17,291 nt of DNA from a virus (Duplodnaviria > Heunggongvirae > Uroviricota > Caudoviricetes): IMG/VR virus record IMGVR_UViG_2541047683_000005. The stretch is one strand, 5' to 3'. The notes below the pieces were generated by a model. That model saw nothing but the letters and a program-made list of their open reading frames with translations. It had not been told where the DNA came from and did no database searches. Positions 1 to 17,291 of the stretch are shown piece after piece; position 1 is the stretch's first letter, and every line of letters starts with the position of its first letter. The position numbers and the translations under genes were made by a program.

Positions 1-2757
1 TCAGTTCCCCACCGCCTTTCCAAAATCCGGTGCTCTACGTGGCGCAATAGCACCCGGTTCCCACCAACTCGTTATGTCGAACTCCCGTTGCGCGCGGTCC
101 CTTACTCGATCATTGTAACCAGGGTTTGCCATCTCCTGAAGTTGTTGCAATATCAGGTGATTGGTTATCGCTTTCGCATACCACAGGTTTGCGAATGGAG
201 TGATCATGCGGGCTGTTTTCAGTGCATCGGCACCGAATGATGTTTCTTCACCCTGTAGAGCCTTCTGTGGGTTAGTAATCAGTAATTTTGTTAACTGCTC
301 TGCAAAGCTCAACACAGGGCCACCCATAGTGGCACCGATGCTGGAGCCATATTGCGTATGGTCCTGGAAAATAAAATCACCGTAGATACCGAACGAACCA
401 CCTTTCAGTAGAGCCTGAACCCATGTGGTTGGTTTTGTCATATCCAGCGGGTCATTACCATTTAACAAACTGTTCATCTGGATCGCAAACATACCAGCAA
501 GAGTTGTTCCCCCGATATATGAGGCCAGAAATTTAATGGCCGGAACGGTGTCCAAATCCCGTGTTCTGTTAACAAGTTGCCGAAATCCAGCAAATGGGGT
601 TGTTTTGAAGAGCATGAAGCTCTTCATTAACTCGCCAGCATCATCACGGGCATATGTATCAATACCCGTAGCGGTGGTCACAGCATTGGTCATCTCACCG
701 TGCGTAATTCCCAGCAATTTCTGGGCTGCTTCAGCGCGTGCATTACGAATCATGCGCGTGATGGTCTGCTCAGCCTCAGCGTCGAATGCTTCTTTCATCC
801 GTTTCAGGCGTTCTGGAGGGAGATCTCCAAGGGCTGCCAGTGCCTTTTCACTCCCGGCACGAATCCGGGCAATACGGTCTGCCATAATGTCGGCGATTAC
901 GTTATCGGGCACAGCGTAAATCGCGTCTGGCGTCATCCCCATATGCCCGGCAGTAGTCATCGGCCTGAGTTCTGCCGCTGCCATGATGGCCCAGTCCTCA
1001 TTGCTCCATCCCTTGTTAGCCAGAATGGTTTTATCGGTTCCTTTTATATCGTCCAGCGTCTTAAATTTTCTGGTCAGCTCGCCAATATTTTTGTACATCA
1101 GGAGACCAAACGACGCTTTGTTTGCGCGGTCCATAGCGATCAGCCCGGACCACTTCAGTGTCTTCTCTGCGAACCAGCCAGTTATGCCGCGAGACAAGTC
1201 AAACCCGCCCATTTTCGAAACCACAGCAGCATGTGAATCCACCAGCAGACCGAGTTCAGCATTCGCCTTTTTGGCATCTCCACTAAACAGGTTTTTGATA
1301 GTGTTAACGGAAAGCCGCATTCCACCACGGGTAAAGCCCAGCGCCTGCGCATTTGCCCGCATAATTGCCTGGTCGCTGGTTGCTGTCAGTACGCTGGTGC
1401 CAAGCATGGCGCTGGTCATCAGGTTACGCAGACCACCAACTGCTGAAGAGAACACACTCGATGAAGCGACACCATTTAGGCCAGCCATTGAGTTGAACAT
1501 ACGGGCAACTAATTTGGCCTCATCCTCCATTTCTTTTTTGCGTTTCCCGCCTGTTACTGCGCGCTTATAGATGCGATCCAGTACCAGGGAAAAGTTTCTT
1601 TCGGCGTCCGGACCAAAGGCTTTAACGACGCCCAAATCCCTGGATGATGATTGCAGGTGCGACATCATCACCCCCACCAGCGGCTGCTGAGTGTATCGCT
1701 CCATATAGGCGAAGTGTGACTGCGCATCCTTGAACGCCATCACCCTGTGCTGAGAACCACGGCTCTTTATTCCTCCGGCTCCCATAAATGTACCAGGCTC
1801 AATTTTGTTTGCCCCATCAGTGGCCTTCGTTTCAAAGATCGCTTCCAGTGCCTGACGGTACTCGACGTCATTCATAATGCTGCCGTCAGGATTAACGTAA
1901 TTGCTGCGATCCTGCGTGTTGTAAGCGTCATCAACCCATTTCTGGCGGGCAAACTCAATCGGTGGCTGGCGACCTGAAAGACGTGCTGTAGCTTGCTCTG
2001 CCACTGGTAACGATGCCAGCCATTCTTCGCGCCCGGCATTGCGAATAAGGTCAGCATCATCCACATATGGCGTATGCCAGTCTTCTCGCAGGCCTATGTC
2101 AAAGCCGTTGTCGTTCATCTCATGACGAACACGGCCTGTTACATCCTTCCAAATCTGTGCAATTTTCTTCGCCAGGGGATTACCGGTATCTTCGCCATAA
2201 ATTTCTTTCAGGATCTGGAGTTGTGCAGACTTTGCCGCCTGCCTGTCGAATACACTCCGAAACCGCTGCTCTCCAAGCGCCCTGCTCTGCTCGAAGAATT
2301 TGCGGACGTCATCACCTGCTTTTAGAAGTTCAGCACTGAGCTGACGGGACCAGTCCTGATATGCCCCAATTGCAAGCTCTTCAGCAGAAGTAACGGAGAT
2401 ATCAGCTTTGTCTCTCGATCGTCGGCCAGCAAAAATAAACTGCTGCAAATTAACAGGTGTCTGCTGATCAGGCGGGATGTTAGCATCGAGAGTGTCAGTA
2501 ATTTTACTGATGGCGATCGCATTCTGGGCAACACGCTGTCTTTTCTTGTACACATCATGAACCACACGCTGGCGTACCAGTTCTGCTGCATCCATGTATG
2601 TTTGAGCATCAGGAATACCACTTTTGCCTTCTTTTGCATTCTTTCTGTGCACATGCTGCACAGCTTCTTTGATACGATCTTCAATATTTTTCAGCTCATC
2701 AGCCTTTGGCTGGCGACCAAGTGTCTGCGCAATAGCTTCCACACATGCCTGTTTCAT
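1..2757 (-). CDS. Large hypothetical protein, 918 aa; candidate phage virion-internal/ejection-type protein (function unassigned)
   Basis: Uninterrupted minus-strand ORF ending with TGA at 3..1. The track ORF starts at 2778 but that codon is GTG (plus strand 2776-2778 is cac) with no nearby SD. The ATG at 2757 (MKQACVEAI...) has GAGGAA 6 nt upstream and overlaps the upstream stop as TAATG, so it is the preferred start. Protein is rich in A/G/S/T/N/Q with almost no Cys and has Gly/Ala/Ser-rich hydrophobic stretches (e.g. LAGLNGVASSSVFSSAVGG). No catalytic motif recognised. Confidence 0.65.
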   Translation of the reverse strand: MKQACVEAIAQTLGRQPKADELKNIEDRIKEAVQHVHRKNAKEGKSGIPDAQTYMDAAELVRQRVVHDVYKKRQRVAQNAIAISKITDTLDANIPPDQQTPVNLQQFIFAGRRSRDKADISVTSAEELAIGAYQDWSRQLSAELLKAGDDVRKFFEQSRALGEQRFRSVFDRQAAKSAQLQILKEIYGEDTGNPLAKKIAQIWKDVTGRVRHEMNDNGFDIGLREDWHTPYVDDADLIRNAGREEWLASLPVAEQATARLSGRQPPIEFARQKWVDDAYNTQDRSNYVNPDGSIMNDVEYRQALEAIFETKATDGANKIEPGTFMGAGGIKSRGSQHRVMAFKDAQSHFAYMERYTQQPLVGVMMSHLQSSSRDLGVVKAFGPDAERNFSLVLDRIYKRAVTGGKRKKEMEDEAKLVARMFNSMAGLNGVASSSVFSSAVGGLRNLMTSAMLGTSVLTATSDQAIMRANAQALGFTRGGMRLSVNTIKNLFSGDAKKANAELGLLVDSHAAVVSKMGGFDLSRGITGWFAEKTLKWSGLIAMDRANKASFGLLMYKNIGELTRKFKTLDDIKGTDKTILANKGWSNEDWAIMAAAELRPMTTAGHMGMTPDAIYAVPDNVIADIMADRIARIRAGSEKALAALGDLPPERLKRMKEAFDAEAEQTITRMIRNARAEAAQKLLGITHGEMTNAVTTATGIDTYARDDAGELMKSFMLFKTTPFAGFRQLVNRTRDLDTVPAIKFLASYIGGTTLAGMFAIQMNSLLNGNDPLDMTKPTTWVQALLKGGSFGIYGDFIFQDHTQYGSSIGATMGGPVLSFAEQLTKLLITNPQKALQGEETSFGADALKTARMITPFANLWYAKAITNHLILQQLQEMANPGYNDRVRDRAQREFDITSWWEPGAIAPRRAPDFGKAVGN

Positions 2758-4817
2758 TATGGGTTCCTCAAGAAGCACGCTGCCGCTACAGAATAAACCT
2801 TCGATTCGTTCTGGACTGTCTTAATCTGTTCATCCAGCTCAGCCAGGAGATCAGAAAGTTTTGTCGGGTTTCCGGTTTCCGGGTGAGCTATAGTCAGCTC
2901 AGGATTGGCAACAGCCATGTCCCTGGCAGCCATAAGGTCATAGCTGTTGGATGAGAGAACCTGCCCTGTATCTGGATCAACGCTGACGTCCCCTCTGTGT
3001 TCACCAGCCGATGAGAAAGCACTTTCAGCACGAGGGACAGGCGATTCACTAATTGGCTCTGATGATGTTTCATATCTGACACCATTTTCTTCAAAAACCT
3101 TTTGTATTTCATGGTATTGCTCTTGGTAAGTATCAGATATATCTGATCGCAATGGACCATCAAGCCCTCGCGCCATCCCCCCAACATTTACAGGCTGACC
3201 ATCATTAAGTTGCCTGTATGCTTCATCCATGGCGTCAACATGACTGTTGATGCTCTCATTGCTGGTGTGAAGCACTGGTGACGATTCAATATCGTAATGA
3301 AGCCCCTCATTCAAAATGTGGGCTGCATCAATATCGCTTGGTTTTATTCTTTCCCTCGCCCGGATACCAAAAACTTTTTCTACTGCGGCTTCCAGTTTCA
3401 TATTGCGAAGACGCATACTTACGAGTAACCGTAACTGCTCAGGTGTAACGGTTCCAACCTGAATACCACTGTATCTGAATATATAGGCTTTAAAACCTGA
3501 AATAATTTTTTCCCATGACGAAACGCTTGTCTTTAGAGATGGATTTACTGCATGTGCGGCAACTTCTTCAGCGTATAACCACTCAGGATATGTTTCAGGG
3601 TACTCACCCCTTTTCTTATATTCATAATATTGTGACATCCCATATGCAAATTCAGGATAGTCAGAATGCTTGTTTGCAGATTTAAGTACAGCATTAGCTA
3701 GCTTTCTGGCCTTCCAGTCAGGGTAATGGCGCTGCTCAAGATGAAGCGCCTCATGATGAAGGGTTTCTAACAGTTCTTCATGGTCTTTTAATCCATTAAT
3801 ATTTATTCTTATTATTGGTTCTTTTCCAGAAGCTACTGTCACATGACCTTTATTCAGAAGTATTTCTCCATCACTATTTTTTATTGCTGGTTCATTAATA
3901 AGTTCTATTACTCCTGAATCAGATAAATCACGAACCATTGACTCAATGTTACCATCAGGAGATTGCTGATAATGTTCACCAAAAGTTGATTTTATTTCTT
4001 CTGCAGAAATGTTCGACTCTGTACCATCATGGTTATTATGGGTAGTCAGGTGATGAACGCCACCAAAGACCCCGCCTAAAACGGCATCGACTAACATCGC
4101 CTGACCGTCAAATACCCGGTACTGTTTTGCCATCTCCGTGTAGCCTTTTTCCTCCAGTGTTGCACCGACAGAGTAACGGTTCAGTCCACCGAATCCGGTG
4201 TTGATTGCCACACCTGAGGCAATGCGCGTTGCCAGTGTGGTGCCGACGGCAGCGGGTAAGGCCATACCCACAGCATTGAAAAGGCTCTGCTGCGTTGCCA
4301 GGTTACGCGCCGTAGCCTCATCTACTCCCTTCCCTTTAAAATCCTGATAGGACTGCTCATACGTAGAACCGAAGGCTGTAGCAGCGCCGATGAGTGGGCC
4401 GCCAAACATAGTTGTTCCGATTGCAGGAACAAATTTACCAAGCTCATTTAATACCTCAGCCGCCATTCCCTGGCTGCCTGCATCAGGCTTCACATAGCTG
4501 CGGGCATCCTGTAACTGTTTTCCGATCGTGTCGTATGTATCATTCAGTGTTTTGTCAGCATCAGGGAACATCTCCCGAAAAATATTAACAGTCGGTGCCA
4601 CGTCTGCGGTAAATGCCGGATCGCTAATCAGGCGCTTGCTGAATCCGACGGCAGACTGCGCGAGACCGAGAGCCCCCTCCGCCACGCCGCTCAAAAGTGC
4701 AGTACCTGAACCCTGGAAGGGAGTCGGATCGTAGTCTTCTGGCCTTGCTGGGTTGGCAACTGTTTTGTCGTCAATCCATGCCTGACCTTCTGGAGCCAAA
4801 GAAAAAACATCAGACAT
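2757..4817 (-). CDS. Large hypothetical protein, 686 aa, with glycine-rich hydrophobic segments and an HExxH (HHEALH) zinc-metallopeptidase-like motif
   Basis: ATG at 4817 overlaps the upstream stop as TAATG; GAGGG lies 7 nt upstream. N-terminal third has glycine-zipper-like hydrophobic segments (GKFVPAIGTTMFGGPLIGAATAFG; LVDAVLGGVFGGV). HHEALH is encoded at 3741-3758, inside a visibly AT-richer patch (about 3400-4060). Confidence 0.65.
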   Translation of the reverse strand: MSDVFSLAPEGQAWIDDKTVANPARPEDYDPTPFQGSGTALLSGVAEGALGLAQSAVGFSKRLISDPAFTADVAPTVNIFREMFPDADKTLNDTYDTIGKQLQDARSYVKPDAGSQGMAAEVLNELGKFVPAIGTTMFGGPLIGAATAFGSTYEQSYQDFKGKGVDEATARNLATQQSLFNAVGMALPAAVGTTLATRIASGVAINTGFGGLNRYSVGATLEEKGYTEMAKQYRVFDGQAMLVDAVLGGVFGGVHHLTTHNNHDGTESNISAEEIKSTFGEHYQQSPDGNIESMVRDLSDSGVIELINEPAIKNSDGEILLNKGHVTVASGKEPIIRININGLKDHEELLETLHHEALHLEQRHYPDWKARKLANAVLKSANKHSDYPEFAYGMSQYYEYKKRGEYPETYPEWLYAEEVAAHAVNPSLKTSVSSWEKIISGFKAYIFRYSGIQVGTVTPEQLRLLVSMRLRNMKLEAAVEKVFGIRARERIKPSDIDAAHILNEGLHYDIESSPVLHTSNESINSHVDAMDEAYRQLNDGQPVNVGGMARGLDGPLRSDISDTYQEQYHEIQKVFEENGVRYETSSEPISESPVPRAESAFSSAGEHRGDVSVDPDTGQVLSSNSYDLMAARDMAVANPELTIAHPETGNPTKLSDLLAELDEQIKTVQNESKVYSVAAACFLRNP

Positions 4818-7348
4818 TATTCAACCCTCACGACAATAGCTTTATTGGTTCTGGGATCTGTTGCCCAGCGTCCGCTACCATTTACAAGCCGATACCGGTT
4901 ATTGCCGATATTAACTGGCGTGAAATTTGACACTGCATTTACGTTAAGTCCGGCATCTTTCAGTGCTTGTTTCGCAGATGTGGTATAGCGATCTTTGAAA
5001 GTAGATTTATCCATGCCGAAAGGCATTACAACGTCGCCGCCATTAAAACCATTGTATATACCGCCAGTAGCATACTTCACGGCATCAGCTACAATGTCTG
5101 TATCAGGCATACTGGTTCTTACCGTAGATGCATCACCAGATTGATAAGCTATTCCTGCATAAGCGGCTTTGAAAAGGCTATAACTGATCTGGCGTAACTG
5201 CGGGTTACGGGCAAATGCATTACCTACCTGTTCGTCGAAAGCGTCTTTCATCTTATCTTCGCTCGGCAACTGTACCGGAGTTATGCCCGCATTCTTCATG
5301 GCCTTCGTCGGATTCAGTAGTTGGTCGCCGGAAAGAATAACCTTTGCAACGTCGTACTTGTTCATCGTCGGCTTATACCCGATGAACTGACTATATGGGA
5401 TCGTCGGCTTGGTGTTGTCGTACTGGTTATCCGGCGTGCCCAGCAGCAGCGCAGAATAGGCTGTTGCCGCACTGTTCGGAGCAATTACAGATGCCACCTG
5501 CCGTATTGCTGGCGCAGGCAGCTTCTCCCCCATGCTCTGCAACAGTTTAATTGTCTGGTCAACGTTCTGAGTGCCGCGCACCTGCTGTGCCAGCGCAGCC
5601 GCCTCTTCACTGTTGAGGATTGGGGCATTAATTCCCAACGCGCGTAAGCTTTCCTGCGACGAGAAACGGTTAGCCACCTCGGCAGTGATGTCGTCAGGGT
5701 TGTTGCTGGTGATCGGCTTATAGGCTCCGATTTCCACCGCTGCACTAAACGGATTATTCTGCCTCTGGGTTATTACCTTCGTGGCTGCCGCCGATACCCG
5801 GTCGAATAACTCCGCACGAGACGCATACCCCTCCCCTGTTTCACCAGTATCCGGGCGCAATTGCTCAACATATGCGGTAATGCTGCTTGTCGGCATGTTG
5901 CGGAAAGAGCCTATATACTGTCCGGCGATCTGCAAATTTCTGAACTCGATATATCGCAGGTTTCCTTCTCTGACACCATAAGCTGCAATGAACTCATCCT
6001 CACCAGGTGGGTTAGGAAATTCAACGCCACGCATAAACGCAGCCGTCGCATCGCGAACCCTGCTATCGAGCATCGTTCTATATTCAGCCTGCTGCTGTCT
6101 GGCTAATGCATCCGTCTGTCGCAACACGCTGGCCTGATCTGATTCATTTAAAGCATCGAACCAGGCTACACCGGTATAACGTTTATTTTTTGTCGGTAGC
6201 TGAGAAAGCCCCAGTGCGGCACTAACACCTGCAGTTAACTGCTGATCACTGTATGGCTGGCTACCGTTTTCATGATGGATAATGGCTGCACAAAGCGCCT
6301 TCAGGGTATCAGGATTTGATGCATCGAGAGGCTCATCAGCAGAAACGCCAAGTTGTTCGCACACTGCTTTGATATACGACATAGTGTCATTTTTATCAGT
6401 AGGCGGTGCCCAGCGATTAATTATCTCGCTGACGGTATCAATACCCTGCCGCTGATACGACATCAGGTTCCGCCCTAATGCACGAATACCGTGTTCAGGG
6501 GTTTCGAATTTGGCAAAGCGACCATCATCACCAGTCTGCCCAACCCACGGATTAGTTTTGCTGTATTCAAGATTGCCGGGGTTATTGTTGCGTATACCGC
6601 GGGTACGATCGGAAGAGCCACTATCTGCTACAGCACGGCGAGATCCAGCAGCAGTATCGCTTAACTCGCCGTTTTGCTGTCTTACCTGAAGATAGTTTGC
6701 TCCAATAGCATTTTGAGCAGTTGCTTTTGCTGTTGCTTCTTTAAACTCGATTTTCTTGGCCTGGATTTGCTCGTCGCTCCAGCCATGCGCAATACCGTAA
6801 TCCTCAATTTGCTGGAAAGTTTGCGTATTAGCCAATATGTATGCTGCGTTGTCGCCATATAATGCTGCGGCATTTTTACCATTATTCAGCAGTGTCGCCT
6901 GAAACTGGCCTTCTTCGTAGGCATTTATTTGCCCTATCTCGTACCTCCCGGCCTGCGTAGTGAACTGAATGCGCTGCTGCTGCGCCTGCTGCATGAAAGC
7001 ATTACGAGCCTGTTCATCCGGCAGCGACATAGCCAGTTGTTCGACCTGAGCATCAAACTGCTGTGTATACTCATGGCCTTTTCCAATAGCATTTTTCCCT
7101 TTCAGATTAAGCAATCCTGTTTCAGGATTATTCAGCAGATCACTGCCTGTCTGACTGAGTTTAAGGGATGCCTCCTGAACCAAGGCAATATTGGCGCGCT
7201 GTTTTGCCTGACCAAGAACATCAATTGCCTCTGTCCCTGCCCGAACAAAAGCATCACCAATACCTGGCTGAGAAAACGTCTGCAAGCCTGCTGACTGAAC
7301 TCCACGGCTCTCAACCTGACGTCCGGATACTGTTGGTACGACTGGCAT
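4817..7348 (-). CDS. Large hypothetical protein, 843 aa; candidate phage virion-internal protein (function unassigned)
   Basis: ATG at 7348 with GGGGG 6 nt upstream; stop overlaps the next gene start (TAATG at 4815-4819). Gln/Ala/Asn-rich N-terminus typical of phage structural proteins. Conserved-looking segment RNNNPGNLEYSKTNPWVGQ...RWAPPTDKNDT at about aa 251-330 (nt about 6239-6598). Confidence 0.65.
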   Translation of the reverse strand: MPVVPTVSGRQVESRGVQSAGLQTFSQPGIGDAFVRAGTEAIDVLGQAKQRANIALVQEASLKLSQTGSDLLNNPETGLLNLKGKNAIGKGHEYTQQFDAQVEQLAMSLPDEQARNAFMQQAQQQRIQFTTQAGRYEIGQINAYEEGQFQATLLNNGKNAAALYGDNAAYILANTQTFQQIEDYGIAHGWSDEQIQAKKIEFKEATAKATAQNAIGANYLQVRQQNGELSDTAAGSRRAVADSGSSDRTRGIRNNNPGNLEYSKTNPWVGQTGDDGRFAKFETPEHGIRALGRNLMSYQRQGIDTVSEIINRWAPPTDKNDTMSYIKAVCEQLGVSADEPLDASNPDTLKALCAAIIHHENGSQPYSDQQLTAGVSAALGLSQLPTKNKRYTGVAWFDALNESDQASVLRQTDALARQQQAEYRTMLDSRVRDATAAFMRGVEFPNPPGEDEFIAAYGVREGNLRYIEFRNLQIAGQYIGSFRNMPTSSITAYVEQLRPDTGETGEGYASRAELFDRVSAAATKVITQRQNNPFSAAVEIGAYKPITSNNPDDITAEVANRFSSQESLRALGINAPILNSEEAAALAQQVRGTQNVDQTIKLLQSMGEKLPAPAIRQVASVIAPNSAATAYSALLLGTPDNQYDNTKPTIPYSQFIGYKPTMNKYDVAKVILSGDQLLNPTKAMKNAGITPVQLPSEDKMKDAFDEQVGNAFARNPQLRQISYSLFKAAYAGIAYQSGDASTVRTSMPDTDIVADAVKYATGGIYNGFNGGDVVMPFGMDKSTFKDRYTTSAKQALKDAGLNVNAVSNFTPVNIGNNRYRLVNGSGRWATDPRTNKAIVVRVE

Positions 7349-8017: not shown

Positions 8018-8434
8018 TTAGCCTCCGGCTCTTCCGTAGCGCTGTTCTGGTGGATTCACATAGCCCCTTTCTTGCAGGTATTCGCGAATATCAGACATCA
8101 GGAGACGGTTAACCGTGCTCCTGTCTTTTCTCTGGTAAAGGCGTCTGGTGATCATGAAGTAGTTAGCAATGACCTCCGGTATATCCCTGACGCTGATACA
8201 TGCTGTATGCTGGTCAATAGCTTCAATCATCTCTTCACGAGTTACAAAAGTCTGGCGTAAACGAGTGATCACACCATGTACATCTGAATGATCATTTATA
8301 CGCTTATTTTGGCGCTTCGCGCTCTCGACTGTGACACTGACAACAATGTCAACTCTTTGTTTCTCCGCCATTTCATCCACAATGTGATCACCTGCACGGC
8401 GACCATGTGCGTGATCATTTCTTACTATTTCCAT
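8018..8434 (-). CDS. Hypothetical protein, 138 aa
   Basis: ATG at 8434 with GGAGGAG 6 nt upstream; overlaps the 3' end of the FinO-like gene by 20 nt. No recognisable motif. Last gene before the terminator. Confidence 0.55.
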
Positions 8435-9584: not shown

Positions 9585-11711
9585 TTAATCTTCTGCTTCA
9601 GGCTGGAACATCAGCACGTAAAAAATATGCTGCTTCCCGCCAATCCTGCCGAGCGCCTTTTTCTTGTAACGGCGGTCGCCTCCCGCTTCCAGCATTCCGG
9701 CAGCACTCAACGCGCGGGCAAAGTGGGACGGGTTAAATCCCTGTGCGATCTCCCCCTCAAACACATGCGGAAACGTGTAAAAACGGAACTCATCATCTTC
9801 ATTTCTGATACTCCCCTTTCTGTATCCGGCAAGGTCTTTAATCGGTAAATCACGCTCATCGCTGTTTGGGTAGGGAAGGTATCTACTGAACCCGAACGAC
9901 GACAAAAACGCCTCAGCCTGTTCAACCATCTGTTTAAATTCCCTGTTGCCCGTGCCGAATTCCTTCACCCAGGCATTAAAGTTATGCTGAACTGCATCAC
10001 GGCACGCCTGAACATCCCAGCCTGTAACATGACCGGAAAGCACAAGCGCGGCCTCCAGTACGGCGAATCTTTCCCCCACGCGGTGAACCTGCTCGCCGTA
10101 GCTCTCCGGTATCAGGTTGCGCCACCGCTCGCGACATGCCCTTACCGCGTCCTTTGCCTCCTGCTGGTGGCCTGCCAGCCATTTAACCCACTCACGACCT
10201 GCCGCCCCGTGATTTTCTGTCCAGGCATCTTTTAACGCGTCTGCGTGCGCCTTTCCGGTGCTGTATTCGTGAAACTGCGAGGCCTTTTCCATCGGCACGT
10301 TAAGCAGACGGACAAGCTGCCCCGCTTTAATTTTTATCCCTTCCGTTTTGAGGAATGTTTCAACGTCCATTTCTCCGGTGCTGATTGCCACCGTGCGCCA
10401 GTGTTTTATCTCCCTGTTGCCGCCGTCCTTCGCCCCCTGTAATTTCCCGGAACCGTTAAACAGCGTATAGGCTGACGTGGACACCTCCCGCGCGTTTCCG
10501 GCCTGGCCTATTTCATCCAGGGGTAACAGCCCGTCATTATGTGCTTCGGCCTCGTTGGCGATACCTAACGCCGTTCCGTACCAGGTCAGCCGTTGCGCGT
10601 CCGGCTCTCCCCATAAACTTGATGCAATGTTCTGTGTGGTGGTTTTACCTGCTGATGATTGCTCAAAAAGATGAACCCCGAAGCCGTCAGCACCCACCAG
10701 CCCGATTAATGGTGCGGATAGCGATACCGCCACACCCAGCATCATGGACGGATTACCACCAGCCAGCCGCGCCACGGTATCGCGCCAGCCCTCCGCTGTT
10801 CCCGCCACGGAATAGCCATTAACTGCGGCAGTTTTTCCGGTAAACAGGATGGGTTTCTCTGATTCACCAATGACCGAACCATCCGGCATGATGTACGCAC
10901 CAAAATGCCAGCCCGTTGTAGTGCTTAGCTGCCATTCCTCATGACTTCCGCTTAACTGCATCCAGTCAGCCAGGATGGCTCTGTATTTGCCGTTGGTCGT
11001 CACGTTAAGACCGTGGTCTTTCAGCAACCGCCAGCCGTCACGGTCACCAATGCCTCCGCACGGGACCGCCATTGTAATGACCTCATGGTTTGCTGGTTTT
11101 TTCCAGCGCATCACGCGGTAATGCTCTTTGCCGATTGTTCCTGTTCCCAGTAGTTCAAGCGGAGAACATAACCACGTCTCAGGCCGGATAATTTCGCCTG
11201 ACTGCTTGTCCACTTTGGGCGTTACCCAGAAAACACCATCGACGCGACTTTCAACACGAGGCTTTAATTCGTCATCATAATTTCCGGTGAAATTTGTCTT
11301 TGCCGGAAGGTTGATCACCAGACTGTTACCGCGTTCCGCATCATCCTTCAGTCCAGCCATGCGCGGTGTCCAGTCCTCCGGCTGCTGGTCAACAAAGCTG
11401 CGGTAGCAACGCGCCTCCTTCACACCCGCCACTGCAAGCAGTGTCGCTATCTGTGTAAGGTGCTGCTCTGATATTTCACCAGCACGATAAACGCGCACGT
11501 AATAGCGCCCTTTGTCGATGATTTGCGTGTCTGCCAGACTCGCCAGTTGTTCCGGTCCAAGAATAACTGGATGTGTATCATCTGCCGCAATATGCTTTCC
11601 GGCCCATTCGCTCCACTCTTTCGCATGTGCCCAGGCATCACTACCCGCAAAGATAATCACCTCCGTCATTTTGTCTTTCGGCTGGTGCTTTAAATTCGGT
11701 GCGCGTTTCAT
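9585..11711 (-). CDS. Replication protein, 708 aa (primase/helicase-like with P-loop; DUF927-like)
   Basis: Large ORF with a P-loop-like motif (QSSAGKTT) mid-protein. Start ATG overlaps the upstream stop as ATGA (11708-11711). Position between alpA/regulators and the iterons matches pri-rep genes of P4-like and PICI-like elements. Family assignment is from memory of domain architecture, not a search. Confidence 0.7.
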   Translation of the reverse strand: MKRAPNLKHQPKDKMTEVIIFAGSDAWAHAKEWSEWAGKHIAADDTHPVILGPEQLASLADTQIIDKGRYYVRVYRAGEISEQHLTQIATLLAVAGVKEARCYRSFVDQQPEDWTPRMAGLKDDAERGNSLVINLPAKTNFTGNYDDELKPRVESRVDGVFWVTPKVDKQSGEIIRPETWLCSPLELLGTGTIGKEHYRVMRWKKPANHEVITMAVPCGGIGDRDGWRLLKDHGLNVTTNGKYRAILADWMQLSGSHEEWQLSTTTGWHFGAYIMPDGSVIGESEKPILFTGKTAAVNGYSVAGTAEGWRDTVARLAGGNPSMMLGVAVSLSAPLIGLVGADGFGVHLFEQSSAGKTTTQNIASSLWGEPDAQRLTWYGTALGIANEAEAHNDGLLPLDEIGQAGNAREVSTSAYTLFNGSGKLQGAKDGGNREIKHWRTVAISTGEMDVETFLKTEGIKIKAGQLVRLLNVPMEKASQFHEYSTGKAHADALKDAWTENHGAAGREWVKWLAGHQQEAKDAVRACRERWRNLIPESYGEQVHRVGERFAVLEAALVLSGHVTGWDVQACRDAVQHNFNAWVKEFGTGNREFKQMVEQAEAFLSSFGFSRYLPYPNSDERDLPIKDLAGYRKGSIRNEDDEFRFYTFPHVFEGEIAQGFNPSHFARALSAAGMLEAGGDRRYKKKALGRIGGKQHIFYVLMFQPEAED

Positions 11712-12010
11712 TTTTTGCCCCTGAATGCGTTAATCATGTTCTTTATTACCTGAATATTTGCCCGTGCTTTCTCTTTACTGGTGGGCTTACTGCGTGGTGC
11801 TGCACATACCAGTGAAAAATCACGCCGGAACTGATGAACGGGCATCACACAGTCATAGTCGTACCCTGCGCGGCGGTATGTAATGTGCCGTTCATACACG
11901 GAATTAATAACCACGATGTCGCCATATTTATCCCGGAAAATATCCCCGATCCTGATTTTCGGGTGAGTCTGTCCGCTGGCATTTAAGCCAGTAAATTTAA
12001 TCTTCTTCAT
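11708..12010 (-). CDS. Small hypothetical protein, 100 aa (possibly DUF4222-like)
   Basis: ORF translationally coupled to the replication gene (ATGA overlap). Sequence pattern IGDIFRDKYGDIVVINSVYERHITYRRAGYDYDC resembles small conserved prophage proteins; family assignment is tentative. Confidence 0.5.
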   Translation of the reverse strand: MKKIKFTGLNASGQTHPKIRIGDIFRDKYGDIVVINSVYERHITYRRAGYDYDCVMPVHQFRRDFSLVCAAPRSKPTSKEKARANIQVIKNMINAFRGKK

Positions 12011-12012
12011 GT

Positions 12013-12270
12013 TTATTTCCCGGTATGGGGTTCTTCTTTATATTTATGGGCTAACAAATCTGGTAATTGCCTGTATTTATCCTCGGCAATATATTCAGAA
12101 TAATCGACAGCACTGTTCAGTATATCTAACGCCGTTTCATGCTCCAGATTCGAAACTATAAGGAACGTTGCTACTTTTAGCATATTCGCGATATGCAAAA
12201 GAGCATCAATTTCATTTTTTGGCGCTTCGCTGAATTTTTGCTCCAGAAGAATAAATCGTTCATCACGCAT
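12013..12270 (-). CDS. Small hypothetical protein, 85 aa
   Basis: ATG at 12270 with strong SD AGGAGGA 6 nt upstream; overlaps the upstream ORF stop by 8 nt. Acidic, helical-looking protein with no recognised domain. Confidence 0.55.
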   Translation of the reverse strand: MRDERFILLEQKFSEAPKNEIDALLHIANMLKVATFLIVSNLEHETALDILNSAVDYSEYIAEDKYRQLPDLLAHKYKEEPHTGK

Positions 12271-13231
12271 AGTGTTCCTCCTGACGGATGCGGGCAGTAA
12301 ATACCATCACGCAGCCAGCCGGGGATTGCTGACGGGCTTCCTGTTCGCTGGTGGCCTCGATGTGGATTACGCGCGGTTGTGCCGTACTCAGGGCGATAAA
12401 ACGCCAGATAAAATTGTTTTCGCATTTCTGAATAAACAGCGTGTTTTCTTCGCGCCCTTTCCATGTTGCCGAGATATAGCCCATGTCATTGAGCATCTCG
12501 CAGGCATCAACCAGCGTATCAGCGGCTACGTGTACAGTGTTTTTACCGTCAGCTATGCAATCACGGTGCACCGCCAGGAAGGTGTATATAAATTTAGGGT
12601 GAGTTTGGGTATGCTGTGTTCCAGCCATAATCGTTACCTCGTTTAACGGTTTGGTTAGACGCCCTGCATGTGTTGCGAGCACTGCGGGGCGTTGCTCTTT
12701 CAGGTGTATTTCACCTTTGCTTTTTAATTTACTCACTGGTGAAATACACTTCAAGCCTTTTTTTATCATTTTTTTTGCGTATACTGACATACACCAATTT
12801 TTAGGAGATCCAGAAATGGCAACTGGTGCAAAGAACGCAAAATCACAAATGACAACTGTCAGAATCCCACATGAAGTAATGGATGATATTGAGCAACTTA
12901 AAGAACCTGGCGAAAGTACCGCTGGTTTTTTAGTTACTGCCGCAAAAGGCGAGATCAAACGCCGCCAGCGCCGCAAGGCCAAAGAACAGGAATAGCCCAC
13001 CAGCAAGCCAGCACATTCACCATAATGACCCTCGGTTAAAGCTAGGGTCATTACCTCGTCGTTATCCAGAACTGAAACGGCATCAGTAACATTGCTGATT
13101 TCCAGCGCAGCACACACATCAGCGCCAACAAACCACGGCTCGCCGTTGATACTCACTATGCGCACCTGAATGTCATCGAATTTAATGACAGAGATTTCAG
13201 TGCGCCCGGCATAAAAGACAGGTTTACGCAT
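12263..13231 (-). CDS. Bro-N domain protein ORF (322-aa open frame; probably composite, true 3' extent uncertain)
   Basis: ATG at 13231 with GGAGGTGA 6 nt upstream, 2 nt after the antirepressor stop. N-terminal ~70 aa match the Bro-N pattern (INGEPWFVGADVCAALEISN...LDNDE). The middle of the frame is Cys/Ser-rich and looks non-coding: it is antisense to a plus-strand RHH gene and runs through an AT-rich promoter-like region. The last 122 aa have their own SD (GAGGT) and ATG at 12628 and may be a separate gene, 12263..12628. Confidence 0.45.
   Translation of the reverse strand: MRKPVFYAGRTEISVIKFDDIQVRIVSINGEPWFVGADVCAALEISNVTDAVSVLDNDEVMTLALTEGHYGECAGLLVGYSCSLALRRWRRLISPFAAVTKKPAVLSPGSLSCSISSITSCGILTVVICDFAFFAPVAISGSPKNWCMSVYAKKMIKKGLKCISPVSKLKSKGEIHLKEQRPAVLATHAGRLTKPLNEVTIMAGTQHTQTHPKFIYTFLAVHRDCIADGKNTVHVAADTLVDACEMLNDMGYISATWKGREENTLFIQKCENNFIWRFIALSTAQPRVIHIEATSEQEARQQSPAGCVMVFTARIRQEEHYA
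12703..12750. promoter_or_regulatory. Inverted repeat (candidate operator) in the RHH-gene upstream region
   Basis: GGTGTATTTCACC (12703-12715) and GGTGAAATACAC (12738-12749) form a 12/13-bp inverted repeat with a 22-bp spacer, followed by T-runs and a TATACT -10-like hexamer (12780-12785) upstream of the RHH gene SD/ATG. Confidence 0.4.
12816..12995 (+). CDS. Small ribbon-helix-helix (Arc/Mnt/CopG-like) DNA-binding protein, 59 aa
   Basis: ATG at 12816 with SD AGGAGA 7 nt upstream. Protein MATGAKNAKSQMTTVRIPHEVMDDIEQL... has a beta-strand-like TVRIPHEV followed by two helical segments and a basic tail (KRRQRRKAKEQE). Only convincing plus-strand gene; antisense to the long Bro-N frame. Confidence 0.5.
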   Translation: MATGAKNAKSQMTTVRIPHEVMDDIEQLKEPGESTAGFLVTAAKGEIKRRQRRKAKEQE

Positions 13232-13991
13232 GGCTGCTCACCTCCATGCGGCGGGCTAACCAGCGTTGCGAAAGGCGAATTAATTCAGCTTTCCGCTGGT
13301 GGTAGTCCTGGCCTAACTCAATCAGCGTGATATTGCTCTGCTCAAGGTAAGAAAGGTGCTCAAGCTGCAACGTGCTCATGTGGTCGCGTGGTTCGCCTGT
13401 GATGCCGTTCGCCTGCGCCCACTGTTTTGCAGTCATGCCACCCAGCACGATACGCGCCAGCATATTGGCTTCCGTGGTGTAGTGGTGCTGGAGCGTGTTT
13501 TTACCCAGTTCAGCCCGGTACGTCTCCAGCGCGGCGCACATAGGCTTAAAGTGGCTGGCTACGGTGATACGGGCTTTCAGTTCCCGGCGTAACGCTGCGG
13601 AACGTACAGGCGCTATCTTGTGTAGCTCCTCCTCGCATTTGATGAAGTACTGACGAACGGCGCGGCCCTGATCATTGCGTTCGATCATTGCCAGTTCTTT
13701 CGCCATTCCGACACTTAACAGATAGTCTTTACCGGGTCTGCCAGAGTGCTTAATCTTGCTGTAAGCCGCGCCATTCGGGCTTTTCCCCAAATTTGGGGAA
13801 ATTGTTTTATGGACTGAGTAATCGTACCCAATGGTGAAGTCATATTCAGAGATGCGATCAGTGATCCATGTAGAGAAGTCTTTTCCCACGCCCAACGCTT
13901 TGTGTAACGCTTTTGCGCTAACAACAGCGGCTTCACGCCCGCCAATAACGCCGGATGCTACCGGAATAATTGCAGCAAAATTCTTAAGCAT
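13224..13991 (-). CDS. Phage antirepressor, AntA/AntB-domain protein
   Basis: 255 aa. N-terminal region VVSAKALHKALGVGKDFSTWITDRISEYDFTIGYDY...GRPGKDYLLSVGMAKELAMIERNDQGRAVRQYFIKCEEEL matches the AntA/AntB antirepressor signature. ATG at 13991 with GGGGGTGA upstream; overlaps the Rha-like gene by 8 nt. Confidence 0.75.
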   Translation of the reverse strand: MLKNFAAIIPVASGVIGGREAAVVSAKALHKALGVGKDFSTWITDRISEYDFTIGYDYSVHKTISPNLGKSPNGAAYSKIKHSGRPGKDYLLSVGMAKELAMIERNDQGRAVRQYFIKCEEELHKIAPVRSAALRRELKARITVASHFKPMCAALETYRAELGKNTLQHHYTTEANMLARIVLGGMTAKQWAQANGITGEPRDHMSTLQLEHLSYLEQSNITLIELGQDYHQRKAELIRLSQRWLARRMEVSSHA

Positions 13992-14682
13992 GTTTCACCC
14001 CCAGAGACGGCGCTGACGTTATCAGGCTGGCGAACGTCTCCATGCGGCGGGCAACCTCCCGCACCGCTTCGGTCGGTGCCATGCCGTTCTGTATCGCTTC
14101 GTGAAATGCTGCCTGCTCGATTTTCTGCATGACCACCAGCAAACCTAACTGCTGATCGCTGGCTGCCTGGCGTTCACCTGTTACCAATCCGGCAAAACGG
14201 TTTTCTGTGCGTGCCAGATTGATGTAGTGGTGACGTTCTGCACCCAGTGCTTTAAGTCCCTCACGGCTTTCGTGATAGCCCGGCAGATATTCGCGGCGTA
14301 CGGGTTCAGCGGCGCGACGCTTTGCAAATGCCTTTGTAACATCCAGCTTGAAGCGGTTCATGCGTTCATCATCACGACCGCGCACAATGCGACACATGTA
14401 ATCAAACTGATCGCTATTCAGGAGGGCAAACTTATGTTCACGCTCCCCGTTTTGACGGGTTTTTAATCGCTCCGTTTGAAACGGAAGGATGCCCAGTTCA
14501 CGCAATCCGGTTTTGTGCTTCTGAATGAGCGAATAAAGGTTTTTGTGCTTTATGCCAATACGCTCAGCAAATAAGCGGGAATCAATGCGCGACTCTGCTT
14601 TGTGGCGAATCAATATATCGCTCTGGCTGGCTTCAGGCTGAACGAAGCCCTGCCCCTGTACGGGCATATATGGACGGTTCAT
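13984..14682 (-). CDS. Putative phage regulatory protein (Rha-like)
   Basis: 232 aa. Segment DSRLFAERIGIKHKNLYSLIQKH...FALLNSDQFDYM resembles the Rha-family pattern (SR-IAE-GK-H-NVLR-I ... Y-L-D). ATG at 14682 with AGGAG 7 nt upstream. Assignment is moderate. Confidence 0.5.
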   Translation of the reverse strand: MNRPYMPVQGQGFVQPEASQSDILIRHKAESRIDSRLFAERIGIKHKNLYSLIQKHKTGLRELGILPFQTERLKTRQNGEREHKFALLNSDQFDYMCRIVRGRDDERMNRFKLDVTKAFAKRRAAEPVRREYLPGYHESREGLKALGAERHHYINLARTENRFAGLVTGERQAASDQQLGLLVVMQKIEQAAFHEAIQNGMAPTEAVREVARRMETFASLITSAPSLGVKHA

Positions 14683-14758
14683 TGAAAACTCCTGCTGTCG
14701 AATTAAGTTACTTTTATTTGCTAGTGGATAGCTTGGGCAATAACCCGTTGCTATTTAA

Positions 14759-14956
14759 TCAAGCAGCCGTTCCGCGTGATTCGGCAATACGCTGATTGAT
14801 CCATTCGTCAATTTCACTTTCAACGAAAGCAATCGCTCGCGAGCCAATTTTAACTGATGCAGGAAATTTACCTTGCCCCATAAGGCGATAAATCCATGCC
14901 TTGCTATATCCAGTTCTACGCTGAACTTCTGTTAAACGAATAAGCGTATTTGACAT
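14759..14956 (-). CDS. alpA: AlpA-family transcriptional regulator (prophage CP4-57-type regulatory protein)
   Basis: 65 aa. MSNTLIRLTEVQRRTGYSKAWIYRLMGQGKFPASVKIGSRAIAFVESEIDEWINQR matches the AlpA helix-turn-helix and the conserved E-IDEW-xQR C-terminus. ATG at 14956 with GAGGT upstream. Confidence 0.9.
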   Translation of the reverse strand: MSNTLIRLTEVQRRTGYSKAWIYRLMGQGKFPASVKIGSRAIAFVESEIDEWINQRIAESRGTAA

Positions 14957-15026
14957 CTATTTACCTCATAACGTCTACTCAATTTGACGAGGTAATCATG
15001 GCACAGAAATAACGAATATTTTCATA

Positions 15027-15135
15027 CCCTCAGGCCTAATGGTTACCGGAAGGAAATTAACCCTAAGGGTGATGGTAAAATTGACGGAGAAGATAAAAAA
15101 ACACCCTCAGGGTAACAGTAAATCACCCTCAGGGT
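15027..15135. promoter_or_regulatory. Array of helically phased palindromic sites (ACCCTnAGGGT) upstream of alpA
   Basis: Palindromes ACCCTAAGGGT (15060-15070), ACCCTCAGGGT (15103-15113) and ACCCTCAGGGT (15125-15135), plus a half-site-like ACCCTCAGG (15027-15035). Start-to-start spacing is 33, 43 and 22 bp, roughly multiples of one helical turn. Lies in the 194-bp intergenic region between the 265-aa gene stop and the alpA start. Confidence 0.6.
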
Positions 15136-15150
15136 ATGCGGTATGGTGCG

Positions 15151-15948
15151 TTAATCCGGCTTTGCGTTCTTTTGGCTGTTGTCTCGGTTAATAGGGCAGG
15201 CAGTCCTCTCTATGAGCGTTGCAAGAGCATTACTTGCCCCCCACTGCTTAAGCTCCCTGGTTATCGCTTCTTGATTTCCCCTGGTGGCAAAATCATTTTC
15301 TGGATCGTAATTGGCCCACTCTCTGTTTCTAATCTCAATAGCCTTAGCTAATGGGTCTTTATCCCAGTATTTATATAAGTGTATCGGGCGCTCTTGCTCT
15401 AACTGCTCTATCCTTGCCCTTAACTCTGCGTTTTCTTTTTCCAGCCTTGCGATTTGGGATAATAAATCATCCTCTGTACGCAACTCTTTCTTTTCAATAT
15501 CGCGTCCTTGTGCCTCGTCATTTTCAGAAGAGTTAGCGCCTTCCAGCTTCGTTAACGCGTCAAGGACATCGGGAAAAATTGCGAAAATTTCACCCCTTAT
15601 AAATCCAATGTTCTCAAATTCGGGATCTTCCCAATAACCGGACACCAGAAAACCATTTTCATCCCTCTCACCAGGTAAACAACCACGTTTCCGAACCGCA
15701 TTCAGATTTCTATAAAGAACATCATAATCAAATTCATCCCGATACGGGTTACAAAAAGATTCCAACAGCTTAAATTCATTTACTGTGTACAGGCGGATAT
15801 GTTCTCCGCTTATTCTCCTGAGTATCCAAGTTATGACATCTGAAACATCATAATCATCACCAGCGACCTTAAGCACGACCTCAAGAAATTCACGTAAAGA
15901 AATAAAATCTTTTTTGTATTCGTTTAATTCGGCATGAATATCAATCAT
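15151..15948 (-). CDS. Hypothetical protein, 265 aa, with central coiled-coil segment; AT-rich orphan gene between int and alpA
   Basis: The track ORF starts at 15954 but that codon is GTG directly abutting GAGGT. The ATG at 15948 has GAGGT 6 nt upstream and is the preferred start. Contains a heptad-like segment LLSQIARLEKENAELRARIEQLEQE. The gene is visibly more AT-rich than its neighbours. No enzymatic motif recognised. Confidence 0.6.
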   Translation of the reverse strand: MIDIHAELNEYKKDFISLREFLEVVLKVAGDDYDVSDVITWILRRISGEHIRLYTVNEFKLLESFCNPYRDEFDYDVLYRNLNAVRKRGCLPGERDENGFLVSGYWEDPEFENIGFIRGEIFAIFPDVLDALTKLEGANSSENDEAQGRDIEKKELRTEDDLLSQIARLEKENAELRARIEQLEQERPIHLYKYWDKDPLAKAIEIRNREWANYDPENDFATRGNQEAITRELKQWGASNALATLIERTACPINRDNSQKNAKPD

Positions 15949-16076
15949 ACGCACACCTCAGCGTCCTCTACTGTAGTGGCTGTACCAGTCCGTCGAGGTG
16001 TACGGATTTTCGGGAGCGATCCTAGACACAGCCTTTTCTTTCGTCGCTCAAAGTCTACTACTGTATACGCAACCAG

Positions 16077-17291
16077 TCATCCACATTTTCCGAACTTGCC
16101 ATGCACCACGTTACCGCCATGTTCGAGCGAATCCATATAGTCGGCGTACCACTGGAGCATCTCGCGCCGCCCGTCCAGATATTGCGCATGATTGTACGTG
16201 CCACGAATTGAGTTCTTATCAACGTGTGCAAGCTGCGTTTCTATCCACGCGGTGTTATAGCCCTGCTCATGTAAAATCGTGCTCATCGTGTGCCGGAACC
16301 CATGACCAGTAACGCGCCCAGAATAGCCAATACGACGAATAAGCACGTTCATCGCCATTTCACTCATCGGCTTACTGTGCTGGATTCGACCAGGGAAAAT
16401 AAACTGATACTGCCCCGTCATGTGTTTTAACTGTTCCAGAATAGCGATCGCCTGTTCTGAAAGCGGCACACAATGAGGACGGCGCATCTTCATGCGTTCT
16501 TTCGGCACTTCCCACAGACGATTATCAAAATCAATCTCCTGCCACTCTGCCTGTCGTAATTCCCCTGGACGGAGTCCTGTCAGAATCAATAATCGCATAC
16601 CCAGCTTGACGATCTGGCTTCCGGTGTACGTATTAAAAACGCGGAAAAATTCCGGCAGTTCGTCGGCCTTCAAATAGGCGTAATGCTCTTTTTTGTGTGG
16701 AGCAAATGCGCTTGCCAGATCTGGTGCGGGGTTATATTCAGCGCGTCCGGTGATGATTGCGTACCGGAACACCTCGCCGCATCGCTGGCGAACCTTACGC
16801 AATTTTTCGGTCGCCCCACGGTCATTAAGACGGGAGAGAACCGCGAGCAACTCCATTGGCTTAATTTCTGCGATCGGCCTGCCGCCAATGTACGGAAAGA
16901 CGTCTTTTTCAAACGTCTCGATCATTTCCTCGGCGTATGACGATGACCACCTGTCGATCCGCTTTTCGTACCATTCGCGAGCGATACCCTCAAAAGTATT
17001 GCCAAATTTGCTAGCCTGTTCTCGCTTTTGGGCTTTTCTGACCTCACTTGGATTTATACCACCAGCAAGAAGCCTTTTAGCCTCATCCCTTGCCGCCCTG
17101 GCATCAGACAGAGACACATCAGGGTACACACCCAACGACAACATTTTGGGCTTTCCTGCAAACCTGTAGCGCAGTCGCCACCCTTTCGAACCGTTCGGCT
17201 CAATGAGCAACGAAAGCCCGTTACCGTCATTGAGTGTATAAGCCTTTTCTTTCGGCTTCGCGCGCCTGATGGCAAGGTCTGAAAGCAGCAT
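16077..17291 (-). CDS. int: Tyrosine recombinase, P4-family phage integrase
   Basis: 404 aa with ATG exactly at the window edge. N-terminus (AIRRAKPKEKAYTLNDGNGLSLLIEPNGSKGWRLRYRF) is the integrase arm-binding domain typical of P4-like integrases. C-terminal catalytic signatures are present: LRPGE (Arg), HGFRHT (His-x-x-Arg) and RGTYNHAQY (Tyr nucleophile). Confidence 0.9.
   Translation of the reverse strand: MLLSDLAIRRAKPKEKAYTLNDGNGLSLLIEPNGSKGWRLRYRFAGKPKMLSLGVYPDVSLSDARAARDEAKRLLAGGINPSEVRKAQKREQASKFGNTFEGIAREWYEKRIDRWSSSYAEEMIETFEKDVFPYIGGRPIAEIKPMELLAVLSRLNDRGATEKLRKVRQRCGEVFRYAIITGRAEYNPAPDLASAFAPHKKEHYAYLKADELPEFFRVFNTYTGSQIVKLGMRLLILTGLRPGELRQAEWQEIDFDNRLWEVPKERMKMRRPHCVPLSEQAIAILEQLKHMTGQYQFIFPGRIQHSKPMSEMAMNVLIRRIGYSGRVTGHGFRHTMSTILHEQGYNTAWIETQLAHVDKNSIRGTYNHAQYLDGRREMLQWYADYMDSLEHGGNVVHGKFGKCG

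Follow-up and report, generated by a model that had tools for sequence, protein, structure and literature searches.

Phage-inducible chromosomal islands (PICIs) of Gram-negative bacteria carry a Bro zone between int-alpA and the replication genes, in which genes of the AntA, Phage_pRha, Bro-N, KilA-N and Phage_ASH families swap domains, and a late zone of captured helper genes comes after (PMC10111431). Helper-dependent excision, replication and transfer have been reported for EcCICFT073 and EcCIMP1, in which AlpA is a helper-induced master activator of its own and downstream genes and the alpA promoter responds to the helper, not to SOS (PMC6092414, PMC11773190). Here we describe a stretch of 17,291 nucleotides (IMG/VR virus record IMGVR_UViG_2541047683_000005; the whole stretch is called the window) that contains a related island, and three of its genes: a Rha-like gene, an AntA-domain gene and a small ribbon-helix-helix (RHH) gene, ylcI. 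The original prediction, made from the letters alone, was that the first two are an antirepressor pair, perhaps directed at a helper prophage, and restrained by the RHH gene, as in immI of phage P22. Our analysis indicates instead that they belong to the Bro zone of an EcCIMP1-like PICI and probably encode helper-induced DNA-binding regulators, with ylcI probably belonging to a separate cassette.

The window contains an AlpA-type PICI

A chromosomal island of Escherichia coli strain E1 matches the window at 99.99% identity; this island is inserted at tRNA-Gly beside actS/xdhA and spans ~18 kb from the tRNA gene to the flanking chromosomal genes in the annotation of the genome record (10-20 kb is the size expected of a PICI). 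The integrase gene lies beside tRNA-Gly in that record, alpA follows downstream in the same orientation, a DUF927 primase and an SSB are encoded by the island itself, and homologues of virion proteins number only three, with no full structural or lysis set. The element is an AlpA-type Gram-negative PICI at tRNA-Gly, related to EcCIMP1, and its predicted satellite character was borne out by the order int-alpA-...-primase next to a tRNA gene, as well as by this close kinship to a verified PICI.

Read from the integration side along the minus strand, the genes are integrase, a 267-aa coiled-coil protein, alpA, Rha, AntA and a Bro-N fragment, followed by ylcI on the opposite strand and then by icd-like, an 85-aa open reading frame (ORF), a DUF4222 gene and the DUF927 primase gene; beyond the primase lie SSB, ProQ/FinO, a frameshifted perC and three large proteins. 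With the exception of ylcI, every major gene is encoded on the minus strand. All four published PICI zones (Integration, Bro, Replication, Late) are seen in this order. As in the published Bro zone, genes of the Bro network with AntA, Phage_pRha and Bro-N matches lie between the integration and replication zones and show domain swapping; some of the published zones hold C4/isrK RNAs (PMC10111431), whereas the island in the window lacks them and has the RHH cassette in their slot.

The closest described relative is EcCIMP1 of E. coli MP1, whose helper is Kapi1 (PMC11773190). Both islands have the order int-alpA-X-AntA-...-icd-like-primase, PerC and ProQ/SSB-type accessory genes, and helper-type ejection proteins in the late zone; the AntA protein and the EcCIMP1 protein named 'antirepressor' share 77% identity from end to end, AlpA is 78% identical, and AntA is the gene best conserved between the two islands at the DNA level (80%). 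EcCIMP1 differs in having an unrelated 143-aa gene at the position of Rha, C4 and isrK RNAs and no ylcI, a P22-type instead of an epsilon15-type ejection cassette, a tRNA-Thr instead of a tRNA-Gly site, and a primase with a TOPRIM extension.

Rha-like and AntA genes of the Bro zone

The interval 13224-14682, to which the predicted pair had been assigned, contains exactly two minus-strand ORFs, and Pfam and PHROG searches agreed with the calling of one as AntA and the other as Rha-like. The AntA protein consists of an N-terminal AntA domain (~residues 1-125) and a helical C-terminal domain absent from Pfam, and its first ~130 residues match several PHROG families named 'anti-repressor Ant'. The Rha assignment was further supported by matches to phrog_518 and phrog_2657 and by tblastn identities of 24-39% to phage Rha proteins; the orthologue is named 'Rha family transcriptional regulator' in RefSeq. 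Comparison of the two proteins with each other revealed no similarity, and an origin as paralogous duplicates was therefore ruled out. A third gene of the network, overlooked in the original prediction, is the Bro-N fragment running from 13231 down to ~13045, which covers 41 of 96 profile positions; a sister island has this gene in intact form (185 aa).

The genes are tightly arranged. The Rha start codon is preceded by a ribosome-binding site (GGAG, 7 nt ahead of ATG), Rha and AntA overlap by 8 nt (ATGCTTAA) in an arrangement of the ATGnnTAA type, and the overlap of AntA with the next ORF (ATGCGTAA) is of the same type. The predicted co-orientation of the two genes thus held, with coupling by the 8-nt overlap, and their position just upstream of the replication genes was correct, as icd-like, the 85-aa ORF, DUF4222 and the DUF927 primase follow. 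On the other side, a gap of 76 nt that contains no terminator-like site separates Rha from alpA, which lies upstream.

Both proteins appear modular. The last 130 residues of AntA (window 13227-13619, minus strand) belong to a family outside Pfam with 272 clusters at 50% identity, and among 105 full-length members the N-terminal partner is pRha in 48, AntA in 24, KilA-N in 21 and Bro-N in 3. The C-terminal half of Rha (window 13992-14390; nucleotides 292-691 of the query) is 83.5% identical to part of a gene that bears the annotation 'Icd-like' in the genome of a different E. coli strain (NZ_CP075697, 3712894-3713293), an example of Bro-zone domain swapping. When the C-terminal halves of Rha and AntA were searched separately against Pfam no family was found (E up to 5), and PDB sequence searches with both proteins gave nothing significant. 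For the AntA protein, an AlphaFold (AF2) model had DNA-binding protein DdrC as its sole significant fold match (E = 8e-5), which gives weak support for a DNA binder composed of a winged helix and a helical bundle. A homopolymer at 14003, in the 3′ end of Rha, is C5 in the window and C6 in strain E1, where it shifts the frame and results in a 241-aa 'hypothetical protein' in RefSeq; this difference could be due to phase variation or to sequencing error.

The distribution of the two genes was compared across species using 24 loci with full-length AntA homologues, ranging from Escherichia to Xenorhabdus and Actinobacillus. Wherever a locus reaches both flanks, AntA was located in the interval from alpA to the primase gene, and its full-length identities are 50-77% across genera. 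In 14 of the 24 loci the gene separating alpA from AntA is a homologue of the unrelated 143-aa EcCIMP1 protein, and among 28 loci compared the Rha-like gene was confined to the lineage of the window. Of 5426 complete E. coli genomes, 667 contain the AntA gene and 63 the Rha-like gene (coverage at least 80%). AntA recurs at a syntenic position in the zone, and Rha and Bro-N are lineage-specific accessories; the supposed antirepressor pair is not a unit, as Rha is rare and restricted to one lineage and AntA is widespread. Edwardsiella phage EPP-1 was the only phage found to have a full-length AntA homologue, in a lambdoid-type genome where lysis genes lie on one side of it and terminase genes on the other, and it was dropped as a pointer to the helper, as this position gives no helper link.

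Taken with what has been shown in relatives, where the helper phage activates the alpA promoter and AlpA activates its own gene and downstream genes, this arrangement suggests a coupled chain that would run from the alpA promoter through alpA, Rha, AntA, an eta-like ORF ending in icd-like, the 85-aa ORF and DUF4222 to the primase. Because transcription would start at the alpA promoter, Rha and AntA would be made only after the helper has switched alpA on. The products, each with a swappable N-terminal domain (pRha, AntA or Bro-N in this zone) joined to an unrelated C-terminal domain, would most likely bind DNA at specific sequences and so regulate genes of the island or of the helper. CapR of the PICI-like element (PLE), a repressor from the Bro network that acts in this manner, offers a precedent (cited in PMC10111431). 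A second precedent for an effect on transcription is Listeria AriS, the one AntA-domain protein to have been dissected, whose AntA domain lowers transcription of genes of the phage that encodes it and does not act as a classical antirepressor; the function of such domains was called unclear by the authors (PMC9043618), and the proteins in the window, unlike AriS, carry other C-terminal domains.

ylcI faces the replication operon and occupies the slot of the C4/isrK immunity RNAs

The predicted YlcI structure (predicted local distance difference test score, pLDDT, of 87.6) consists of an extended segment followed by two helices. Ahead of helix 2 is a G-E-S turn in which E33 and S34 are invariant and G32 is found in at least 90% of sequences; a G-x-S/T/N turn is the signature of the RHH (MetJ/Arc) fold. 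The strand-helix-helix model, the turn and the plus-strand location together supported the prediction of a small antisense RHH gene nearby. Neither PDB sequence searches nor Foldseek gave a significant match for YlcI, and literature searches on the function of YlcI/YnfO returned nothing relevant.

The location of ylcI does not fit control of the Bro-zone genes. It is downstream of rha-antA and convergent with them, and divergent from icd-like across 187 bp, the latter orientation being seen in 17 of 17 ylcI loci examined. An identical 59-aa YlcI occurs in 10 distinct contexts, 193 bp from the icd-like start, in islands with three primase types that include capsid-forming islands. AntA is present in four of these contexts and Rha in none; six have no Bro gene at all, with ylcI directly after alpA. 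AntA, for its part, is found without ylcI in 19 of the 24 cross-species loci. In P22 immI (mnt, arc, ant, sar) a small RHH-fold gene and an Ant-named gene also lie within ~1 kb on opposite strands, and the P22 RHH repressors act at divergent promoters directly before ant. In the window, by contrast, the RHH gene lies beyond the 3′ end of the ant-like genes and faces icd-like, the ant-like proteins lack P22_AR domains, and co-occurrence of RHH and AntA genes is weak. The immI-like control that had been envisaged is thus contradicted by both geometry and co-occurrence, and ylcI is most likely not the keeper of AntA and Rha; judged by its arrangement, it would be a separate cassette heading the icd-like/replication operon.

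Operator-like repeats were identified between ylcI and icd-like, where GGTGTATTTCACC and GGTGAAATACACT form an inverted pair and a degenerate copy, TGACATACACC, lies near the ylcI start. The pair is invariant in the 10 contexts with identical YlcI, while the identity of the AlpA proteins in them ranges from 27 to 98%. The repeat changes with the YlcI variant, being GTGTGTTTCAC in locus L009 and GTGTTTAAACAC, in four copies, in L010 and L015; L002, with a YlcI variant of its own, has GTGTAAG...CTTACAC. We infer from this covariation that YlcI may bind the repeats and thereby control the icd-like/replication promoter and its own. Relative to the sister island of strain GPEC1366, window positions 12410-13007 (598 bp, comprising the 5′ part of icd-like, the ylcI cassette and the junction) replace a 1268-bp segment in which a YlcI variant of 101 aa is accompanied by an ORF of 57 aa and by the 3′ end of Bro-N, and the breakpoints inside icd-like and Bro-N indicate exchange of the cassette by recombination.

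The slot occupied by the cassette is that of an RNA-based immunity module in other elements. In P4, C4 (CI RNA) and isrK (seqA) lie between vis/alpA and kil, and in EcCIMP1 the order is AntA, DUF4222, isrK, C4, icd-like. A C4 match was found in 19 of 20 AntA islands without ylcI, mostly together with isrK (the exceptions among these islands being L019, which has no C4, and L022, in which the C4 match lies upstream of alpA), and neither C4 nor isrK was found in any of 15 ylcI-bearing loci (hypergeometric p ~5e-9, a value that overstates independence, as the loci are related). The ylcI cassette and C4/isrK are therefore mutually exclusive in the same slot upstream of icd-like (window 12629-12995; loci L002-L047), and the absence of these RNAs from ylcI loci at the same position means that the RHH cassette occupies the immunity-module slot. 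In the window, Rfam searches detected neither RNA at the gathering threshold, nor at E up to 5 across 12200-15200; the int-alpA RNA was the only Rfam match besides weak R1162-antisense and ToxI matches at chance level.

The region resembles the immunity regions of P1 (immI: c4 RNA, icd, ant1/2) and P4 (vis, eta/kil, CI RNA, seqA, epsilon, alpha) in that the start of icd-like shows homology to that of P4 kil, an alpA/vis homologue lies upstream, a long ORF is putatively coupled to the upstream gene, a primase operon lies downstream, and sister islands hold C4 and isrK exactly in that slot. It differs in having an antisense-nested RHH gene and repeats in place of C4/isrK and, from P1, in that the ant-like genes are upstream rather than downstream of icd-like. 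The 85-aa ORF, at the position of P4 epsilon, has no similarity to epsilon and was rejected as its counterpart.

In the passages of PMC10111431 concerned with P4, the immunity module gates the replication operon, and the description of the Bro zone given in that paper makes no mention of YlcI. We tentatively propose, as a possibility that falls somewhat short of probable, that ylcI and its repeats are a protein-based PICI immunity module that replaces C4/isrK and is nested antisense in an eta-like ORF, with the Bro-zone proteins independent of it. On the basis of comparative genomics, YlcI would keep the icd-like/primase operon off at rest, as CI RNA does in sister elements, and would most likely also repress its own promoter. 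If this is true, the eta-like ORF has to remain open to translation for AlpA-driven transcripts to extend into the replication genes, and YlcI becomes a candidate 'missing' repressor for these islands, for which, to our knowledge, no global repressor has been identified so far. The lead would also give a role to the uncharacterised and very widespread YlcI/YnfO family, and is cheap to test.

A conserved open frame runs antisense to ylcI

A single open frame of 322 codons on the minus strand takes in the Bro-N fragment, the strand opposite ylcI, the 'intergenic' region and, at its end, the icd-like domain; the icd-like part has PHROG icd-like matches, and a match to the P4 kil start (E = 3e-5) covers residues 197-223. 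One antisense frame is open over 236-493 codons in each of the 17 ylcI loci, which represent five or six divergent cassette types. This frame is the one used by icd-like in every case, its phase relative to ylcI does not vary, and it starts at or over the stop codon of the gene before it (alpA or AntA); the two remaining frames are closed within 11-70 codons. The 61 'intergenic' codons remained open in only 1.1-1.9% of shuffles per variant (6 cassette variants). The 322-codon ORF had been regarded as a mechanical artefact, and this reading was withdrawn because the frame is open in 17/17 loci. It is still open where the cassette abuts a truncated gene, Bro-N in the window and an AntA-like gene in L040.

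This putatively translated frame resembles, by analogy, the nested eta/kil genes of P4. The passages of PMC10111431 on P4 describe eta as coupled translationally to vis and its translation as preventing premature termination. Should the same logic hold in the window, the genes from Rha to the primase would be one unbroken translated chain with ylcI nested antisense in it.

Beside the icd-like start codon is a GC-rich hairpin of 15 pairs followed by a T-rich tract. Three of the pairs are compensatory, and many are G.U pairs valid only on the plus strand. The hairpin may terminate a plus-strand transcript antisense to the icd-like ribosome-binding site.

Alternative explanations

Several observations weigh against the reading of Rha and AntA as DNA-binding regulators with ylcI as a separate cassette. 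The Pfam score of Rha barely exceeds the cutoff (30.9 vs 29.9 bits), and the AntA model is only moderate (pLDDT 67.6; template modelling scores, TM, of 0.36-0.42 to DdrC). A sigma-70 scan of 12200-15200 found no promoter at threshold except one inside the 267-aa gene; the candidate in the ylcI-icd region, TTGAAG-17-TAAATT, matches 8 of 12 positions, and the promoters referred to above are putative for this reason. The conserved hairpin reads best on the plus strand, where it is not explained by the proposed arrangement. In addition, the AntA-domain family includes Ant of phage Phi24B, which speeds derepression upon induction (PMC3064807), so that a protein-protein role for AntA is possible.

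The last point bears on the model of the original prediction, in which AntA, perhaps with Rha, inactivates a CI-like repressor of the helper under the restraint of the nearby RHH protein. Its appeal comes from the family names and the PHROG 'anti-repressor Ant' matches, from the encoding of an RHH-fold protein close by, and from the 45% identity of AntA residues 8-131 to Ant of a Shiga toxin (Stx) phage, which promotes derepression; the idea of a satellite-borne, helper-directed antirepressor is moreover an old one, P4 epsilon being annotated as 'helper derepression protein'. However, Stx-phage Ant consists of AntA and P22_AR_C, the homology ends at residue 131, short of P22_AR_C, and it is the C-terminal domain that links Stx-phage Ant to P22 Ant (PMC3064807). 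No P22_AR_N, P22_AR_C or ANT/KilAC domain was found in Rha or AntA (Pfam, E up to 0.01; C-terminal halves, E up to 5), and the name 'antirepressor' thus rests on the family name. The homology is limited to the swappable N-terminal domain and does not reach the part held in common with proven antirepressors, which illustrates how the label can mislead. Besides the convergent, 3′ position of ylcI and its poor co-occurrence with AntA and other Bro genes, AntA is found with both types of immunity module, ylcI and C4, and is 77% conserved between islands with cargo of unrelated helpers, the P22-like Kapi1 and an epsilon15-like phage. Deletion of the whole EcCIMP1 island left both the titre of Kapi1 and a helper CI-lux reporter unchanged, and EcCIMP1 contributes to superinfection immunity (PMC11773190). 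LexA boxes were absent near the operon, with fewer matches in the window overall than expected by chance, and an SOS-controlled antirepressor logic was abandoned because of this empty scan. We consider the model of the original prediction improbable.

The superinfection immunity conferred by EcCIMP1 could equally be set beside a different role, in which the Bro-zone proteins are interference or defence effectors against the helper or other phages (through repression of phage genes, superinfection exclusion or a nuclease-derived activity) and not regulators of the island's own cycle. The AntA C-terminal domain matches the PADLOC defence candidate PDC-S22 (E = 6e-10), CapR of PLE represses a capsid gene of the helper (in the passages of PMC10111431 concerned with it), and the zone is highly variable, as are arms-race genes. 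Yet PDC-S22 is only a candidate and its match is limited to the C-terminal domain, PADLOC found nothing further in the zone, and the conservation (57-77%) and synteny of AntA across Enterobacterales are unlike those of typical hotspot cargo, and we regard this role as unlikely. The mosaic nature of the island might also suggest that Rha and AntA are decaying, functionless remnants: the adjacent Bro-N gene is truncated, perC is frameshifted and another ORF annotated as partial, the Rha homopolymer of strain E1 shifts the 3′ end, and the segment 12410-13007 has been exchanged in comparison with a sister island. Against such decay, both ORFs are intact in the window, with a ribosome-binding site and coupled starts, AntA is full-length across genera, and the frame 3′ of the Bro-N fragment is open in every lineage, which argues for selection; we regard decay as very unlikely.

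The Rha/AntA pair itself, read as encoding helper-induced regulators, is an ordinary instance of the already published Bro zone. As it re-describes a published feature and the predicted mechanism was not borne out, the finding alone matters little. The mutual exclusion of ylcI and C4 and the conserved antisense-nested frame are new leads beyond the original prediction, unproven and cheap to test.

Other features of the island

The coordinates of the features are collected in Table 1.

Table 1 Features of the window, with position, strand and supporting evidence
Feature	Position	Strand	Evidence or remarks
Late zone: epsilon15 gp15, gp16 and gp17 homologues (internal virion/ejection proteins)	1..7348	-	Identity and PHROG matches
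Replication module: 85-aa ORF, DUF4222 gene, DUF927 primase	9585..12270	-	Primase 9585-11711; phrog_1139 DNA primase, E 3e-174
Long open frame, 322 codons	12263..13231	-	Bro-N fragment, antisense of ylcI and 'intergenic' region, icd-like domain (annotated short form 12263-12628)
GC-rich hairpin, then T-rich tract, beside icd-like start codon	12659..12692 (to 12700 with tract)	+	Conserved pairing
Operator-like repeats between ylcI and icd-like	12699..12795		GGTGTATTTCACC (12703), GGTGAAATACACT (12738), degenerate third copy TGACATACACC (12785)
ylcI/ynfO-family gene, 59 aa, RHH fold	12816..12995	+	Family match; predicted structure
AntA-domain gene, 255 aa	13224..13991	-	Pfam AntA 75.6 bits (cutoff 27), E 4.8e-21
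Rha-like gene, 232 aa	13984..14682	-	Pfam Phage_pRha 30.9 bits (cutoff 29.9), E 4e-7; divergent N-terminal domain and C-terminal half without family
alpA, AlpA-family activator/excisionase-like, operon head	14759..14956	-	Pfam Phage_AlpA E 2.4e-19; 78% identity to EcCIMP1 AlpA
Palindrome ACCCTnAGGGT, three exact copies and one partial	15026..15136		Between 267-aa gene and alpA; candidate control sites
Tyrosine integrase	16077..17291	-	Pfam Phage_integrase, Arm-DNA-bind_3, Phage_int_M; tRNA-Gly outside window, actS flank

From the icd-like ORF to the primase the genes are contiguous (8-nt overlap, 2-nt gap and 4-nt overlap). Upstream of alpA, the palindrome ACCCTnAGGGT has three exact matches where 0.31 would be expected, and was found in L001 and L002 only; two copies precede T runs and were also flagged as terminator-like. 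An int-alpA RNA motif (RF02996) lies at 15965-16032 on the minus strand, downstream of int, with a score of 41.4 bits (gathering score 35.8), and is present in several sister loci. The sole single-nucleotide polymorphism between the window and strain E1, at position 16020, falls within this motif.

In the late zone, identity to epsilon15 is 79% for gp15, 83/74% for gp16, the middle of which is replaced, and 89% for gp17, and this cassette points to an epsilon15/phiV10-like podovirus as the predicted helper. The late zone of EcCIMP1 contains P22-type ejection proteins that match its helper Kapi1. From these comparisons, the internal virion or ejection proteins carried by islands of this type seem to be matched to the helper, and such cassettes (epsilon15-type here, P22-type in EcCIMP1) provide a second testable lead, on the exploitation of podovirus helpers. 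Between the late and replication zones, on the 3′ side of ProQ/FinO, a 138-aa ORF (8018-8434, minus strand), the product of which is a partial hypothetical protein in RefSeq, matches the N-terminal part of phrog_63 'anti-repressor Ant' over residues 57-127 (E = 6e-26), and may be a further fragment of the Bro network outside the Bro zone.

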